UHGV virus genome: UHGV-1550841
Origin: a virus
Length of the DNA: 10,154 nucleotides
Reading direction: 5' to 3' (one strand)
The notes beneath the pieces are model-generated. The model searched no databases. It saw only the letters and a list, made by a program, of their open reading frames with translations, and was not told the origin of the DNA. The position numbers were made by a program, and so were the translations under genes. Positions 1,928 through 9,872 of the stretch are shown one piece after another. The stretch's first letter is position 1. Each line of letters starts with the position of its first letter.

Positions 1928-2587
1928 CTATCCTTCCTGGACTTTGGTAAGCGTCAGATTTCCGCAGAACACTGCGCCGGTGTCGATGTACATTTGGTTT
2001 GCATACACCAGTGGGTGATGTGCTGGCGTATGACCGAAGATGAACAAATCGGCACCGGTTATCTCCGAGACAATACCGTCCTGCGCGTCGCTAACCCGCT
2101 CACGATTCCATATCACCATTTCTTCCGGTACTGGCTTATCGAATGCGTATTCGTTGTGCGGGTAGTCTGCGTGGCAGATGACGACCTTCTTATTGCCGGT
2201 AACCAGTTCGATAATCATCGGGAGGTTGGCAACCTTTGGCAGAAGGTATTTGATTTGCACATCCTGCTCAGAATCAAGTTGGTGCCACCATCCACCGCCG
2301 TTTGACATCCAATGTCCGAAACTTCCGCCGTTGACCAGTGCATCCAGCATCATCTGCTCATGGTTGCCACGAACAGCTCGGAACCACGGCATAGTAATCA
2401 AATCCAGGCATTCGACGTTTTCAGCGCCGCGGTCAACAAGGTCACCAACGGAAATAAGTAAATCGCGCGCCGGGTCGAATGAAACTTTGTCGAGTTCGTT
2501 CATCAGCAGCGTGTAGCACCCATGCAGATCGCCGACGACGAAGATATTGCACCAGTCAGCGCCATTGATGCGTTGATATAGGTTCAT
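1928..2587 (-). CDS. Ser/Thr protein phosphatase, PP-lambda-like metallophosphoesterase
   Basis: Translation from ATG 2587 ([12 protein letters not shown]...) shows the three phosphoesterase signature motifs GDLHG, GDLVDRG and GNHE. The longer ORF start at 2707 is rejected because ATG 2587 overlaps the upstream gene stop (ATGA). Confidence 0.85.
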
Positions 2588-3234
2588 GCTGCACGCTCCC
2601 GCCCCTGGTTGTCTATTGGTGACACCGGAGCATTGCTGAATGCATTTGTTAATCCTCCAATATCCAACGCGTATCCAGGGTGTAGTTGCACTGCCGGGTC
2701 TTCGCACTGATTACCCCAAACATCGAAGCCATGAGACGTCTGGCGGGCGAACAGTTCAATGCGAGAAACATCGCCTAACAATTGCACAAGTTTTTCACGA
2801 ACGATATCTGGTTTTCTTGAATGCTCAAGCCGCGGTGCGGTAAATGACTGAACGATCCCTGCATTAATGCGCGTAGGTAGTTTTCCCTTTACCGCAAACA
2901 GGCAATCTTCACTATTGGCGCGAGTCATGTGCCCCATACCCATAACCAGTTTATCTGGTTGTCGACTACCACATTTTATCCACGTGAAGCCCTTCATGGT
3001 CATCAGACGGAATCCCCAGGCTTCAACAACTTTTAGTGCTTCGAGTGGTTGTGTTGGCACCCACCACATGGCCAACAGACAGTTTTCATCGGCCAAATCC
3101 CACACAGGAAGGCGGCAGATATCCAGCACACTCATAACCGGATATTTAAAACCGGCACCGCGATTACCATCTGCGGCTTTGTCCCGGTATACCCAGGGTG
3201 GATCTGCATAGATTAGTGTGTATTTCTTAGTCAT
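2584..3234 (-). CDS. MT-A70 family N6-adenine DNA methyltransferase (DPPW motif), orphan, no adjacent restriction gene
   Basis: Translation [14 protein letters not shown]... carries the DPPW catalytic motif near the N-terminus typical of MT-A70/phage adenine methyltransferases. ATG at 3234 is preceded by a G-rich SD-like sequence; the alternative GTG at 3246 is less likely. Stop overlaps the phosphatase start. Confidence 0.8.
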
Positions 3235-3526
3235 AAACCACCCCACAACATCCTATGCCGCTATAGTCGCCACGGCGAAGGCCGTTACCTTTTGTGATAC
3301 ATTGGTCCCTGCGAACCGCGATCCTTGCACGTTCAACATCACCAGAAGCAACATCCATACACTGAAGCCAAAGGTGAGCGGCAATGCGGAATTGCCCTTT
3401 TTTCTCTCTTTCAATCGCGCGTTTTTCGATCTCTATCGCCGCAGGAGTAACGGCGACAATCTTTGACGGACTGCGCATTGAAACCTTATTCATGTGATAT
3501 TTTTCAAGTCGGCTTAACTTTCTCAC
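3227..3526 (-). CDS. Hypothetical protein (99 aa from GTG 3526; alternative ATG start at 3493)
   Basis: ORF in operon orientation filling the gap between the AlpA-like gene and the methyltransferase; its 3' end overlaps the methyltransferase start by 8 nt. GGGGG SD-like sequence upstream of GTG 3526. No recognisable family. Confidence 0.3.
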   Translation of the reverse strand: MRKLSRLEKYHMNKVSMRSPSKIVAVTPAAIEIEKRAIEREKKGQFRIAAHLWLQCMDVASGDVERARIAVRRDQCITKGNGLRRGDYSGIGCCGVVYD

Positions 3527-6476: not shown

Positions 6477-7061
6477 TTATTGTTTGTTTTTTTCGTTCTG
6501 GTTGATGACAAATTCAATGTAACTTTCGATCTTTGCTTTCTCGGTTTCGGGTAACAATGCGTAGCGCGAGCGGTCATAGTTGATAGTCGCAGGGTCGTGC
6601 GGGTGAATCAGTAGTTCATAGCCGTGACGCCCGAATGCGGATGCAACATTCTCCAGGGTGGAAATGGAAACGCTGACCTCATTGTTTAACAGGCGGCTGA
6701 TTGTCACCTGGGCGACGCCGGATGCGCGGTGAAGTTTTCCCTGTGTTGAAAGGTCGCGGCTTTCGCTCATCCAGCGTTCCAGGTTGTGAGCCGCCAGCTG
6801 ACCTATATCGCTCGGGCCGACAGGCTGAAAACCCTCCTGAGAAAGCGAACGATCAATATCAAGCCAGTTACGGGGTTTATTGGCGGCAGCTTCAATTTTT
6901 CGCGCAACCTGGTCGCCGATAACCTTCTTGCCAAGAGCCCAGCGGTTTACCAGATTTGCCTGAGTTCCAAGTTTTTCTGCCATCCGCGTCTGAACACCAT
7001 TGAATTCACGGTCGATCAAGTCGTTGAGATTTTGCCTGCGGACGTCCTGGATACTTTTCAT
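6477..7061 (-). CDS. Immunity repressor candidate with two tandem HTH (XRE-like) domains and no recognisable LexA/S24-type autocleavage domain
   Basis: 194 aa. N-terminal HTH-like segment (TRMAEKLGTQANLVNRW) and a second HTH-like segment (LHRASGVAQVTISRLLNNEVSVSISTLENVASAFG). Transcribed divergently from the Cro-like gene; flanked by operator palindromes on both sides and followed by a hairpin terminator. Confidence 0.75.
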   Translation of the reverse strand: MKSIQDVRRQNLNDLIDREFNGVQTRMAEKLGTQANLVNRWALGKKVIGDQVARKIEAAANKPRNWLDIDRSLSQEGFQPVGPSDIGQLAAHNLERWMSESRDLSTQGKLHRASGVAQVTISRLLNNEVSVSISTLENVASAFGRHGYELLIHPHDPATINYDRSRYALLPETEKAKIESYIEFVINQNEKNKQ

Positions 7062-7116
7062 TTTCTGGAAAATCGCCTCATATATGAATCAGTAGATGAT
7101 TCAATTTAAAGCAATA

Positions 7117-7131
7117 TTACCCAACAGGTAA
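7117..7131. promoter_or_regulatory. Operator OR site 1: perfect palindrome TTACC-CAACA-GGTAA
   Basis: Perfect half-sites in the divergent repressor / Cro-like intergenic region. Confidence 0.5.
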
Positions 7132-7133
7132 AT

Positions 7134-7148
7134 GCACCTCATAGGTAA
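7134..7148. promoter_or_regulatory. Operator OR site 2 (imperfect): GCACC-TCATA-GGTAA
   Basis: 8/10 match to the half-site consensus, 2 bp from site 1. Confidence 0.3.
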
Positions 7149-7164
7149 CTATCCTTGATTTTTG

Positions 7165-7179
7165 TTACCTTATGGGTGA
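7165..7179. promoter_or_regulatory. Operator OR site 3 (imperfect): TTACC-TTATG-GGTGA
   Basis: 9/10 match; lies between a -35-like TTGATT (7155-7160) and the Cro-like start. Confidence 0.3.
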
Positions 7180-7215
7180 ATATTTATTATCTGAAATAAA
7201 TATCAGGCAATAGCT

Positions 7216-7501: not shown

Positions 7502-7516
7502 GCACCTTAAAGGTAA
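7502..7516. promoter_or_regulatory. Operator-like palindrome (imperfect): GCACC-TTAAA-GGTAA, upstream of the replication genes
   Basis: 8/10 match; same TTAAA spacer as the site at 612-626 and same GCACC left half as OR site 2. Confidence 0.3.
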
Positions 7517-7597
7517 TAAAAAACCAAATATGGTTGATCTTTTTTTTGTGTCAGCACAAAATAACCGTAATCCCAATACTAATAACAGGGCTTACCA

Positions 7598-7797
7598 TGG
7601 AAATCATTACACGTATTGATGCCGCAAAGCGCGGACTTAAACGCTACTACACCGGAAAAACATGTAAGCACGGACATGACAGTGAACGCTGGGTTTACAA
7701 TGGACACTGTGTTGAGTGCACCATGGAATCAAACCGTCGTATCAGGGCAGAGATTAAGCAGATCATGATTAATTCCTCCCCACAACATTCAAGCTGA
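7598..7797 (+). CDS. Small Cys/His-rich (putative zinc-binding) protein at the cII position
   Basis: 66 aa from ATG 7598 (MEIITRIDAAKRGLKRYYTGKTCKHGHDSERWVYNGHCVEC...), motif C-x-H-x-H...C-x2-C. The longer ORF in the track starts at TTG 7534 and would run through the operator and terminator region, so the ATG is preferred. Confidence 0.4.
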
Positions 7798-7812
7798 TAG
7801 CGGAGATTAATC

Positions 7813-8628
7813 ATGAGCAGACATGCAACAGATTGGGCCTGGGAGACAGATCCAGGTAGCTCGTCATTAAAGCTCATACTGCTCTCGATGGCTGACAGAG
7901 CCGATGAATATAACCTCTGCTACCCCAGCATAGAACGCCTCGTTAAAGACACTTGCCTGAATAAAAAAACCGTGCAGGCCGGGCTTATATCGCTCATGAA
8001 AATGGGGCTTATTTCAGATACCGGAGAGAGAAAGGGAGCGACGAAAAGAGTGCGGGTTTTCTCTCTTAATATAACCAAAAACGGGAACATTAAAGGCAAC
8101 CGGGAAGGGGGTAACGAACCCGAAAACGGTAATGTTACCGAAAACGGGAATATACCCAAAAACGGGATGTTGAATGATCCCAAAAACGGGATGTTGAATG
8201 ATCCCAAAAACGGGATCCAGAACCAGTCATATAACCAGTCATTTAACCAAGAGAGGGAGAGCAGGACAAAAAGCGGGGATTCTGTGCCTCATGACCCCGG
8301 AGCAAACAACGCCGTGATGAATAACTTTGTTCCTCCTGGTGGGCCAGGGCAATTAGGCAAATTTGTCATGCATGAACAATGGCAGCCATCAGATGACTTT
8401 CTTCGGAAAAGCTCATTGCAGGGGATCTACCTGGACAGTCTGCCAACGGCACAGGAACTTGCAGAGTTCAGAATTTACTGGATGGCTGAGGGTAAGGCAT
8501 ACCATCAGGCACAGTGGGAGCAGAAGCTGGCAAGGCGGCTGCAGATTAGCAGACAGAAGCAATCAACATTACCTGATAACAACGTTCCGCACTGGAACAG
8601 CCCTGAAGCATGGGAGGATTTCTTGTGA
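7813..8628 (+). CDS. Replication initiator, lambda-O-like in organisation (N-terminal winged-helix, internal iteron-encoded repeat linker, C-terminal domain)
   Basis: 271 aa. GGAG SD 8 nt upstream of ATG 7813. N-terminal HTH-like region (LKLILLSMADRADEYNLCYPSIERLVKDTCLNKKTVQAGLISLMKMGLI). The central part is encoded by direct DNA repeats (iterons). Directly followed by a lambda-P-like gene. Confidence 0.75.
   Translation: MSRHATDWAWETDPGSSSLKLILLSMADRADEYNLCYPSIERLVKDTCLNKKTVQAGLISLMKMGLISDTGERKGATKRVRVFSLNITKNGNIKGNREGGNEPENGNVTENGNIPKNGMLNDPKNGMLNDPKNGIQNQSYNQSFNQERESRTKSGDSVPHDPGANNAVMNNFVPPGGPGQLGKFVMHEQWQPSDDFLRKSSLQGIYLDSLPTAQELAEFRIYWMAEGKAYHQAQWEQKLARRLQISRQKQSTLPDNNVPHWNSPEAWEDFL
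8076..8218. repeat. Origin-type iterons inside the O-like gene: six copies of an AAAACGG(G) core, including a perfect 24-bp tandem repeat
   Basis: Cores start at 8078, 8123, 8141, 8159, 8183 and 8207. CCCAAAAACGGGATGTTGAATGAT occurs at 8155-8178 and 8179-8202, with a partial third copy at 8203-8218. Followed by the direct repeat AACCAGTCAT x2 (8221-8242). Confidence 0.6.
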
Positions 8629-9410
8629 ACAACGTTTTTACCGCGATACAAAACCGTGACGGAGAAGCCCTTTCTCGCATGTCAGGTTATGAGCATCAGT
8701 ACGTCAACAATGACAATGTGGTGAACATGTCAGCAGAGAGGCTTGTTGATGCCCTTTTTAAACAGCTGAAACAACTGTTTCCGGCGGCAGTGGTAACCAA
8801 CCTGAAGACGCCAGAGCAGGAAGTTGCTGCAAAACAGCAGTGGATTGCTGCGTTTGCCGAAGGGGGGATCCGAACCCGTGAACAGGTTTCTGCTGGTATG
8901 CGCCACGCCCGCGCCAGTGAATCTCCGTTCTGGCCGTCTCCAGGGCAATTTATCAAGTGGTGCAAAGACAGCAAGATGGTTCTTGGCGTCACCATTGACG
9001 ATGTGATGGCGGAGTTTCACCGGTACAGCAAGGAAAAAAGTTTATATCCTGGTGGTCCCGAAAGATTCCCGTGGCGACATCCGGTTATGTACTGGGTCGT
9101 ATGTGATACCCGCCGTGCAATGTATCAGCGCCAGCTTAGCGAGATTGAGGTTGAGAAACACGCACGCAGGCTGCTCGATGATTGGGCGAAAAAGGTGGCT
9201 TCCGGACAGCAGATACCCGATCCGGTGATCAGCATACAGGCAAAGCCAGAGCCCATGAGTACGCCTCCGGACACAGGGAGAGACGTTTACCATCCACCAG
9301 GGCGAAGTTTCGGGTGCATGCCTAACGCCGCCACCCTTGGGGGAATAACACCGGCGCAGTGGCTGATGGAGGAATACAGGCGGGGAAAGGCGGCAGGATT
9401 TATCAAGTAA
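8625..9410 (+). CDS. Lambda-P-like replication protein (helicase loader)
   Basis: Translation aligns by eye with lambda P as I recall it (FPA...QW.AAF.E.GI.T.EQV.AGMR.AR....PF.PSPGQF..WC, and LYP....PW...YW). GTG 8625 has a GGGAGGA SD at 8612-8618 and overlaps the O-like stop; ATG 8610 is an alternative start. Confidence 0.8.
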   Translation: MNNVFTAIQNRDGEALSRMSGYEHQYVNNDNVVNMSAERLVDALFKQLKQLFPAAVVTNLKTPEQEVAAKQQWIAAFAEGGIRTREQVSAGMRHARASESPFWPSPGQFIKWCKDSKMVLGVTIDDVMAEFHRYSKEKSLYPGGPERFPWRHPVMYWVVCDTRRAMYQRQLSEIEVEKHARRLLDDWAKKVASGQQIPDPVISIQAKPEPMSTPPDTGRDVYHPPGRSFGCMPNAATLGGITPAQWLMEEYRRGKAAGFIK

Positions 9411-9415
9411 TACCA

Positions 9416-9435
9416 GCGCGATAGCGCATTTTTTT
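9416..9435 (+). terminator. Weak hairpin plus T-tract after the P-like gene
   Basis: GCGC-GATA-GCGC followed by ATTTTTTT. Stem is only 4 bp, so strength is doubtful. Confidence 0.25.
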
Positions 9436-9447
9436 ACGTCTCAATAA

Positions 9448-9462
9448 TTACCTATCAGGTAA
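9448..9462. promoter_or_regulatory. Operator: perfect palindrome TTACC-TATCA-GGTAA
   Basis: Perfect half-sites, 19 bp upstream of a -35-like TTGATT. Confidence 0.5.
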
Positions 9463-9481
9463 CAAAACATTCTAAAATCTA

Positions 9482-9510
9482 TTGATTTCGTGTCTTATGT
9501 GGTTTTTAAT
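9482..9510 (+). promoter_or_regulatory. Sigma70-like promoter (-35 TTGATT at 9482-9487, 17-bp spacer, -10 TTTAAT at 9505-9510) bracketed by two operators
   Basis: Hexamers and spacing read directly; geometry relative to the flanking palindromes is identical to the PL-like promoter. Confidence 0.4.
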
Positions 9511-9524
9511 TACCTTAGAGGTAA
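9510..9524. promoter_or_regulatory. Operator: perfect palindrome TTACC-TTAGA-GGTAA overlapping the -10, start region and SD of the DUF1064-like gene
   Basis: Perfect half-sites; centre-to-centre 62 bp from the site at 9448-9462. Confidence 0.5.
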
Positions 9525-9527
9525 ATC

Positions 9528-9872
9528 ATGAGAAAACAGATACAGGCTCTTGGTCGACTCAAAACAGGCCAGATGAACAAAACAGAATCTGCGTATTGCC
9601 AGCACCTTGAGCAGCGTAAACGTGCAGGGGAAATCGCCTGGTATCGATTCGAGGGTATCAAGTTGCGGTTAGCTGACAACACGTTCTATACGCCCGATTT
9701 TGCTGTGATGCTCGCCACCGGCGAGATGGAACTGCACGAAGTGAAAGGTTTCTGGACCGACGACGCCAGGGTGAAAACCAAAGTCGCCGCAGATCAGTAT
9801 CCGTTCCGAATCATCGGGGTAACGGTTAAGCCAAAGAAAGCAGGTGGTGGCTGGAACATCGAAGAGTTCTGA
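9528..9872 (+). CDS. DUF1064-like phage protein (small, possibly nuclease-fold)
   Basis: 114 aa. Pattern KTESAY..HLEQRKRAGEI..YRFEGIKLRLADNTFYTPDF...HEVKGFWT resembles what I recall of the DUF1064 prophage family. AGAGGT SD 5 nt upstream of ATG. Confidence 0.5.
   Translation: MRKQIQALGRLKTGQMNKTESAYCQHLEQRKRAGEIAWYRFEGIKLRLADNTFYTPDFAVMLATGEMELHEVKGFWTDDARVKTKVAADQYPFRIIGVTVKPKKAGGGWNIEEF

Follow-up and report, generated by a model that had tools for sequence, protein, structure and literature searches.

The DNA analysed here, UHGV virus genome UHGV-1550841, is a stretch of 10,154 nucleotides (hereafter the window) which hosts a phage replication initiator gene with repeated DNA between the coding parts of its two domains: an array of six iterons and, next to it, a shorter second repeat element. 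Across 7700-9500 it matches Escherichia phages phiV10, EC.W1-9, phiv142-3 and PAS61 at 97-99% identity. These phages are members of Uetakevirus, a genus of epsilon15-like podoviruses, and the window is a phiV10-like (Uetakevirus) E. coli prophage. Of 5426 complete E. coli genomes, 424 (about 8%) contain the initiator gene, and its phiV10 orthologue is called 'replication initiation protein' in RefSeq. Genes are arranged in the order repressor, cro-like gene, small open reading frame (ORF), initiator, lambda P homologue. The features that matter for the argument, with amino acids (aa) counted along the initiator, are:

7813..8628, plus strand: replication initiator gene, 271 aa, made of an HTH_36 N-domain, a repeat-encoding linker and a DnaT-like C-domain
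7813..8070, plus strand: segment coding for the N-terminal winged-helix domain, which presumably binds the iterons
8056..8095: 40-mer of lowest stability in the gene (-45.6 kcal/mol, gene-wide z = 3.1, 70% AT), overlapping iteron 1
8069..8086, plus strand: iteron 1, ATATAACCAAAAACGGGA, core 8075-8084
8114..8131, plus strand: iteron 2, ACGAACCCGAAAACGGTA, core 8120-8129
8132..8149, plus strand: iteron 3, ATGTTACCGAAAACGGGA, core 8138-8147, an 18-nt unit present in 1-5 copies in relatives
8150..8173, plus strand: iteron 4, ATATACCCAAAAACGGGATGTTGA, core 8156-8165, the first 24-nt unit
8174..8197, plus strand: iteron 5, ATGATCCCAAAAACGGGATGTTGA, core 8180-8189, with the dyad ATCCC-N6-GGGAT at 8177-8192
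8198..8215, plus strand: iteron 6, ATGATCCCAAAAACGGGA, core 8204-8213, with the dyad ATCCC-N6-GGGAT
8221..8256, plus strand: second repeat element, three 12-nt units AACCAGTCATAT / AACCAGTCATTT / AACCAAGAGAGG, detected by Tandem Repeats Finder (TRF)
8350..8607, plus strand: segment coding for aa 180-265, the DnaT-like C-terminal domain
8625..9410, plus strand: lambda-P-family helicase-loader gene, whose GTG start overlaps the initiator stop codon

Repeats and protein domains of the initiator gene

The heptamer AAAACGG is expected 1.8 times over the whole 10 kb. Six of its eight matches in the window, starting at 8078, 8123, 8141, 8159, 8183 and 8207, make up the array, with core-to-core distances of 45, 18, 18, 24 and 24 nt. 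When the core is extended to CCRAAAACGG and one mismatch is allowed, only six sites are found in the window (8075-8213), all exact and all on the plus strand, a number reached by none of 200 shuffles. TRF divides the region into an 18-nt unit (2.8 copies, 8118-8167), a 24-nt unit (2.6 copies, 100% identity, 8155-8216) and a 12-nt unit (2.4 copies, 8221-8249). Within ORF 7813-8628 the repeats are translated as ...ITKNGNIKGNREGGNEPENGNVTENGNIPKNGMLNDPKNGMLNDPKNGIQNQSYNQSFNQ... (...ITKNG...EPENGNVTENGNIPKNGMLNDPKNGMLNDPKNGIQNQSYNQSFNQ...); the six units correspond to aa 88-134, between the end of the N-domain (about aa 86) and the beginning of the C-domain (about aa 180). A first-pass annotation of the same DNA had reported six AAAACGG(G) cores spaced by 18-45 bp, a perfect 24-bp tandem duplication and a repetitive Asn/Gly/Pro-rich linker encoded by the repeats, and all of this is recovered here.

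Each iteron is an imperfect inverted repeat, as would suit a dimer site. The dyad reads ATCCC-AAAAAC-GGGAT in units 5 and 6, and is reduced to 3-bp arms, either CCC/GGG or CCG/CGG, in the other units. The glycine codon of the repeats is GGG in five of six copies, matching what the dyad requires. Given the short internal dyad in each iteron, binding as dimers is probable. Adjacent 24-nt units also form, on the minus strand, GGGAT-N8-ATCCC hairpins followed by a T-run (8163-8182 and 8187-8206). The notion that these are minus-strand terminators (8163-8206) was discarded, as they result from the alternation of ATCCC and GGGAT arms, and the count of such sites is at chance level. The hairpins are probably a by-product of the iteron arms, though cruciforms or hairpins could form at these sites upon origin unwinding. 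A degenerate seventh iteron at 8100-8109 (CCGGGAAGGG) was similarly dropped, the stretch being unconserved among close relatives. Two 'E-form' units, ACCGAAAACGGG (8120-8131) and CCCGAAAACGGT (8138-8149), resemble the papillomavirus E2 site consensus ACCG-N4-CGGT, almost certainly by coincidence; a sequence-based literature search retrieved unrelated matches only, namely human papillomavirus E2 sites (including a paper on E2 and the viral origin, PMC10095481) and Cas13 repeats.

By position, the 12-nt triplet of the window appears to correspond to a triplet of 12/13-mers carrying the motif GAAYC in relatives. GAAYC is found directly after the last iteron in 69 of 85 loci, in 2-3 copies placed 12-13 nt apart (10-11 nt in a few). 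The element is about 40-fold enriched over the flanks, 57 loci use more than one reading frame for it, and it accounts for the conserved peptides QNQSLEPxIE and RNLSKNLxxESKNKK. In relatives the triplet is usually followed by an A/T-rich stretch (68% AT on average over 30 nt), and phiV10 carries one additional copy of the 12-nt repeat relative to the window. A reading of the 12-mers as sites similar to those of integration host factor (IHF) was abandoned, relatives being inconsistent. The interval 8076-8242 assigned earlier to the array is short at its right boundary: since the second element lies at 8221-8256, the functional unit runs past 8242.

Pfam searches (E <= 0.01) identified in the initiator HTH_36 at aa 18-67 and DnaT (PF17948, E = 1.2e-15) at aa 184-252, and nothing else; neither Phage_rep_O (PF04492) nor Rep_3 was matched at this threshold, whereas a scan of this kind does assign lambda O itself to PF04492 (5.7e-36). 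In an AlphaFold 2 model, built from a shallow alignment including near-identical E. coli proteins only, aa 1-89 form a single winged helix, with three or four helices (helix-turn-helix) and a beta-hairpin, at a predicted local distance difference test (pLDDT) score of 84-92. Residues 90-180 are unstructured (pLDDT about 30), and the repeats therefore encode a disordered tether, which starts two residues past the wing. The C-domain was modelled poorly from this alignment. A phmmer search against the PDB matched aa 180-265 to the C-terminal domain (CTD) of E. coli DnaT (residues 85-170, E = 7e-21; entries 9zbt, 4ou6 and 2ru8). Fold matches of the model in BFVD include the 'Putative replication protein O [phage Min27]' and a 'lambda GpO N-terminal' protein, while Foldseek against the PDB returned generic winged helices only (E >= 0.004), among which a staphylococcal Rep-DNA complex. 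In protein searches, the N-domain alone retrieved truncated fragments only, the full-length initiator only near-identical E. coli proteins of 279-311 aa with more repeats. The product of the adjacent gene matches Phage_lambda_P (PF06992, E = 1.5e-56) and shares 31% identity with lambda P along 203 aa (E = 5e-36); its GTG start is identically annotated in relatives.

Conservation, copy number and modularity in relatives

In phages, tblastn searches detected the N-domain (36-50% identity) in Edwardsiella GF-2, in the Vibrio H20 group, in Acinetobacter AP22 and AB1, and in PPompW prophages. All of them carry repeats of the same type directly after the N-domain, and have different C-terminal domains. 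A scan with the N-domain alignment, restricted to one genome per species, yielded 80 loci (40-87% identity) from Enterobacterales, Vibrio, Pseudoalteromonas, Marinomonas, Acinetobacter, Polaromonas, Burkholderiaceae, Sphingomonadales, Erythrobacter and Desulfovibrio. Motifs were counted in these 80 loci plus four phages (84 in all), by comparing the 420 nt following each N-domain (34.7 kb) with 231.5 kb of flanking DNA. CCRAAAACGG occurs after the N-domain in 134 copies on the coding strand and one in reverse, and in the flanks in 4 forward and 2 reverse copies, which corresponds to a strand-specific enrichment of about 220-fold.

The 134 copies are distributed among the three reading frames as 96/27/11, and encode PKNG/PENG, T/S/PQKR and PKTE peptides. 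More than one frame is used in 25 of the 40 loci hosting the exact motif. As an example, CCCAAAAACGG is read CCC AAA AAC GG (P-K-N-G) in the window, ACC CAA AAA CGG (T-Q-K-R) in the first copies of GF-2 and PPompW, and GAC CCA AAA ACG G (D-P-K-T) in Vibrio H20. The same DNA word is thus found in all three frames, so that selection acts on DNA, not on peptide; a cause at the level of the peptide could not generate such a distribution. The experimentally defined iterons of lambda are likewise in frames 0, 2, 2 and 1. The iteron variants are CCAAAAACGG and, in other lineages, CCAACAATGG (Acinetobacter), CCAAAAGTGG and CCAAAATTGG. The Asn/Gly/Pro-rich linker is most probably a mere consequence of the DNA element, which the protein can afford there because this part of it is a disordered tether.

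Closer relatives differ in the number of repeats. In 94 of them (phage records, E. coli chromosomes and IMG/VR contigs), examined between fixed anchors, CCRAAAACGG is present in 4-9 copies, and in six copies in 62 of the 94; the exception is YDC107_2, which counts 2 units owing to apparent homopolymer errors. The 18-nt and 24-nt units vary from 1 to 5 copies each, the 12-nt unit from 1 to 3, and the length of the array region is a multiple of 3 in all close relatives. Arrays are still longer in the database proteins of 279-311 aa. The earlier suggestion that the tandem copy number may vary between relatives therefore holds, with the addition that changes always keep the frame. A site-by-site comparison of iteron cores with spacers in 63 relatives of modal length did not discriminate between the two: 58% of all gene positions scored as variable, as equal lengths mix different unit architectures and mosaic divergence. 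Gene calls are often split within the array. In YDC107_2 (L003, 1300-1600) A6 replaces A5 in several units and the gene is split, and in protein clusters P0001 and P0002 (97-119 aa, 48-62 members) many entries are N-terminal fragments ending in the repeats. Broken calls could reflect homopolymer sequencing errors or real slippage.

The composition of the gene is modular. Tyrion and epsilon15 are of the same genus and share the DnaT-like C-domain, but their N-domain is another one and CCRAAAACGG is absent. In place of the motif, Tyrion has GGATCAGGGA twice, and the epsilon15 initiator gene (L021) two clusters of GTCCGCA/GCGGAC repeats in both orientations (1236-1287 and 1515-1555), presumably a different iteron set. 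The reciprocal situation is encountered in the GF-2 initiator (L016, 1501-2343). Residues 1-135 include an HTH_36 domain and iterons of the window type, residues 137-280 are 62% identical to aa 156-299 of lambda O (E = 2e-67), a P gene comes next, and the junction sits exactly at the end of ori-lambda. GF-2 thus carries a natural swap, in which an HTH_36 domain and a CCRAAAACGG array replace the lambda O N-domain and ori-lambda in front of the P-interacting half. This fits the lambdoid rule that the N-terminal half of O and the iterons set origin specificity, while the C-terminal half contacts P (PMC7466680, and general knowledge). As judged by the loci compared, the N-domain and the repeats move together, and the C-domains, DnaT-like, lambda-O-like or others, vary.

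A putative replication origin and its alternatives

The array at 8069-8256 is very probably the replication origin of a phiV10-like temperate phage, placed inside the linker-coding part of its own initiator gene. The first-pass annotation had viewed the locus as the lambda arrangement, with ori inside O. Comparative data support the arrangement, because the array lies between the domains, P is next, conservation is at the DNA level, and GF-2 exchanged the corresponding segment. The label 'O-like' holds for architecture and fold only, the HTH_36 domain and the DnaT CTD being distinct from Phage_rep_O.

The repeats, their conservation as DNA, their modular inheritance and the homologies are shown by the sequences; from these we infer binding, unwinding, helicase loading and ultimately origin activity, plausibly in the following manner. 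The N-terminal winged-helix domain would bind the six CCRAAAACGG iterons, giving rise to a nucleoprotein complex similar to the lambda 'O-some', in which dimers of the N-domain may wrap or bend the A-tract-rich DNA. The complex would then melt an adjacent stretch, either the left flank (8056-8095) or the 12-nt repeats (8221-8256), which are both candidates as unwinding site, the 12-nt repeats alternatively as an accessory site. The DnaT-like C-domains, clustered and tethered, may hold the single strand and/or dock the P-like protein, which in turn would deliver the host DnaB helicase.

Some circular records deserve mention. NZ_CP148379.1 (L184) is a circular E. coli record of 8,461 bp deposited in PLSDB, in which a PPompW-type gene of the initiator family and a short P gene are the sole annotated replication genes; its other genes include hokD, rem and those of an HNH endonuclease and an ATP-binding protein. 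NZ_CP079768.1 and NZ_CP079771.1 are complete, circular phiV10-like genomes of 41,027 bp from duck E. coli, deposited as plasmids. A Klebsiella record of 8.6 kb is linear and adds no information. The circular records of 8.46 kb and 41 kb, which might represent episomes or else errors of assembly, are a weak hint in favour of the origin.

A number of observations weigh against the assignment. Stability was monitored as the nearest-neighbour profile of 40-mers, a method that recovers the known AT-rich tract in lambda O. The gene is least stable left of the array, in a segment that reaches no more than 70% AT and extends into iteron 1. In the same profile no strong AT-rich tract is found to the right of the array, unlike in lambda. 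The 40-mers located there are mildly unstable, ranging from -49.5 to -51 kcal/mol (85th-90th percentile of the window), whereas in lambda gene O the least stable 40-mer (-43.0 kcal/mol, 78% AT) is the AT-rich tract located right of iteron 4. BLASTP detected no significant similarity between the initiator and lambda O, and 72% of the motif copies share one frame, as is also expected from in-frame slippage of a coding repeat. In addition, NZ_CP148379.1 was assembled from a single cell and may therefore be artefactual, and the searchable literature yields no experiment on the phiV10-type phage group.

The stability data bear directly on the idea that the repeats are initiator sites serving autoregulation, copy control or incompatibility (by titration or handcuffing), and that the true start of replication is at some other place, such as the AT-rich intergenic DNA at 9420-9520 downstream of the P-like gene. 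The strong AT tract is missing right of the array, the most AT-rich and least stable segments of the window are intergenic (7080-7204, 7508-7547 and 9443-9542), and iterons are generally known to have control roles in plasmids as well. Yet, the AT-rich intergenic regions carry an operator-like 15-bp palindrome, TTACCTNNNAGGTAA, found at 10 sites in the window (<= 2 mismatches; 0.28 expected): 612, 6343, 6405, 7117, 7134, 7165, 7326, 7502, 9448 and 9510. These sites cluster in the repressor/cro intergenic region and flank the initiator-P module, with 7502 before it and the perfect copies 9448 and 9510 after it. They are probable repressor operators, since a repressor site is annotated in epsilon15 at the equivalent position, a short way downstream of the replication gene. 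Moreover, GF-2 replaces exactly the lambda O N-domain and ori-lambda segment by the HTH_36/iteron module, and the array is directly followed by a conserved second element and, in relatives, by an A-rich tract. A start site outside the array is on balance improbable.

Even less can be said for the alternatives that separate the repeats from the initiator. The motif might be bound by another protein, be it a host factor or a different phage protein, its co-occurrence with the N-domain reflecting linkage only, and the GAAYC 12/13-mers could indeed be a host-factor site. The motif, however, follows the N-domain in Sphingomonadales, Polaromonas, Vibrio, Acinetobacter and E. coli alike, whatever the C-domain or the neighbouring genes, and is missing where the N-domain has been replaced, as in Tyrion and epsilon15, which makes this view quite improbable. 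It is hardly credible, finally, that the repeats are a low-complexity protein linker grown by replication slippage, and that the DNA has no function of its own. All six copies of the window share one frame, copy number shifts by whole in-frame units and the encoded region is predicted to be disordered, as such a linker would imply. Still, proteobacterial classes have kept the 10-nt DNA word although the frame, and with it the peptide, differs (PKNG, TQKR or PKTE), the motif is strictly strand-specific at its roughly 220-fold enrichment, the neighbouring GAAYC repeats also change frame at 12/13-nt spacing, and the GGG glycine codon prevails in five of six copies, as the dyad needs.

An extension of the origin assignment may be advanced as a tentative hypothesis, which we regard as possible more than probable. 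CCRAAAACGG iterons, GAAYC triplet and HTH_36 winged helix could form one portable origin cassette, endowed with near-constant DNA specificity across phages of Alpha-, Beta- and Gammaproteobacteria and of Desulfovibrio, and freely recombining with different helicase-recruiting C-domains, DnaT-like, lambda-O-like or others. In the phiV10 type, iteron-bound initiators might concentrate filament-forming DnaT-like domains on the melted strand, and the origin might fire by the single-stranded DNA (ssDNA) handoff chemistry of PriA/PriB/DnaT restart. Cellular DnaT would then be a relative of a phage initiator domain.

Prophage context and comparison with known systems

The rest of the window includes:

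669-1925: integrase
1928-2707, minus strand: calcineurin-like phosphoesterase, adjoining the PerC/MT-A70 genes
3227-3526 (minus) and 2584-3246 (minus): PerC-family transcriptional activator homologue and MT-A70 DNA methyltransferase, in the early-left prophage region
minus strand: RecT and PDDEXK recombination genes
6477-7061, minus strand: double-helix-turn-helix repressor
between the repressor and the initiator region, rightward: small ORFs

A scan of the window for tRNA genes found none. A phiV10-type immunity/replication segment, 97.6% identical, was also found at the end (133.8-138.3 kb) of BP9 (PP488543.1, L002), a 138-kb record classed as Vequintavirus, a genus of lytic myoviruses, and again in phage PH444 (PP350014.1), an unannotated record of 115 kb. 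Both records look like chimeric assemblies or prophage contamination.

Origins located inside the initiator gene are textbook knowledge for lambdoid phages. No description of an origin for this initiator family, and no 'iteron' paper on phiV10, epsilon15 or Uetakevirus, emerged from the searchable literature, genome papers in subscription journals being outside its scope. In the GenBank and RefSeq records inspected no origin is annotated in the array; phiV10 lists terminators, epsilon15 repressor and IHF sites. This origin type is widespread and apparently undescribed. Noteworthy are the conservation over several reading frames, the wide spread of the family, the second repeat element, and its link to DnaT. 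The data provide a concrete origin annotation for phiV10/Uetakevirus-type prophages, extending to a large family of phage initiators labelled only as 'helix-turn-helix protein' or 'primosomal protein I / DnaT'. The names 'primosomal protein I' and 'DnaT' are misleading for a phage initiator. The odd conserved low-complexity peptide (PKNG..., QNQSLEP...) is explained as the shadow of DNA signals, the frequent breaks of gene calls in the array also find an explanation, and a typing marker variable in copy number becomes available. The 10-nt motif and the N-domain could be exploited as a compact orthogonal origin/initiator pair, and the DnaT-like domain ties the firing of a phage origin to the replication-restart machinery.

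Set beside ori-lambda, the array would work in a like manner, though the sequences give no homology to the lambda O/ori-lambda pair. As in lambda and Shiga toxin (Stx) phages, co-oriented iterons with a dyad and an A-tract core reside in the initiator gene between the N- and C-domains. As in lambda, they are read in different frames, and a P-family loader gene comes next with overlapping stop and start codons. The strand is purine- and A-rich in both cases (A 0.42 and purine 0.66 here, 0.44 and 0.62 in lambda). Iterons are 4 in lambda and 6 in Stx phages (PMC7466680). The unit ATCCC-AAAAAC-GGGAT recalls ATCCCTC-AAAAC-GAGGGA of lambda, but the dyad arms, 6-7 bp in lambda, are shorter here, and a core of 10-16 bp is spaced by 18/24 nt, versus 18-19 bp at 20-24 nt. 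The N-domain is HTH_36 instead of Phage_rep_O, the C-domain DnaT-like instead of lambda-O-like. To the right of the array three 12-nt repeats take the place of the strong AT-rich tract, and stability is lowest at the left flank.

The relationship to the other systems is partial. With E. coli DnaT the initiator shares a homologous C-terminal domain. On ssDNA the CTD of DnaT assembles into a filament, and a role in recruiting DnaB/DnaC is ascribed to DnaT (PMC13377028). The N-terminal half is in turn unrelated, as a presumably sequence-specific winged helix and an iteron-encoding linker are found where DnaT has its oligomerisation domain and PriB-docking linker, and the phage protein would be targeted by DNA sequence, not by PriA/PriB. 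The initiators of GF-2, Vibrio H20, Acinetobacter AP22 and PPompW share the N-domain, the iteron type and the trailing ...QNQS / GAAYC element. They diverge at the C-domain, which is the lambda O half in the GF-2 'DNA replication protein O' and of other types in H20 and AP22, and in AP22 the next gene encodes a DnaB-like helicase, not P. Iteron plasmids (Rep_3-type RepA, pi, RepE) would be analogous in having a winged-helix initiator, direct-repeat iterons and an adjacent unwinding region. They differ in that the phage initiator has neither Rep_3 nor a two-winged-helix architecture, hosts the iterons inside its own coding sequence, and is accompanied by a lambda-P-type loader.

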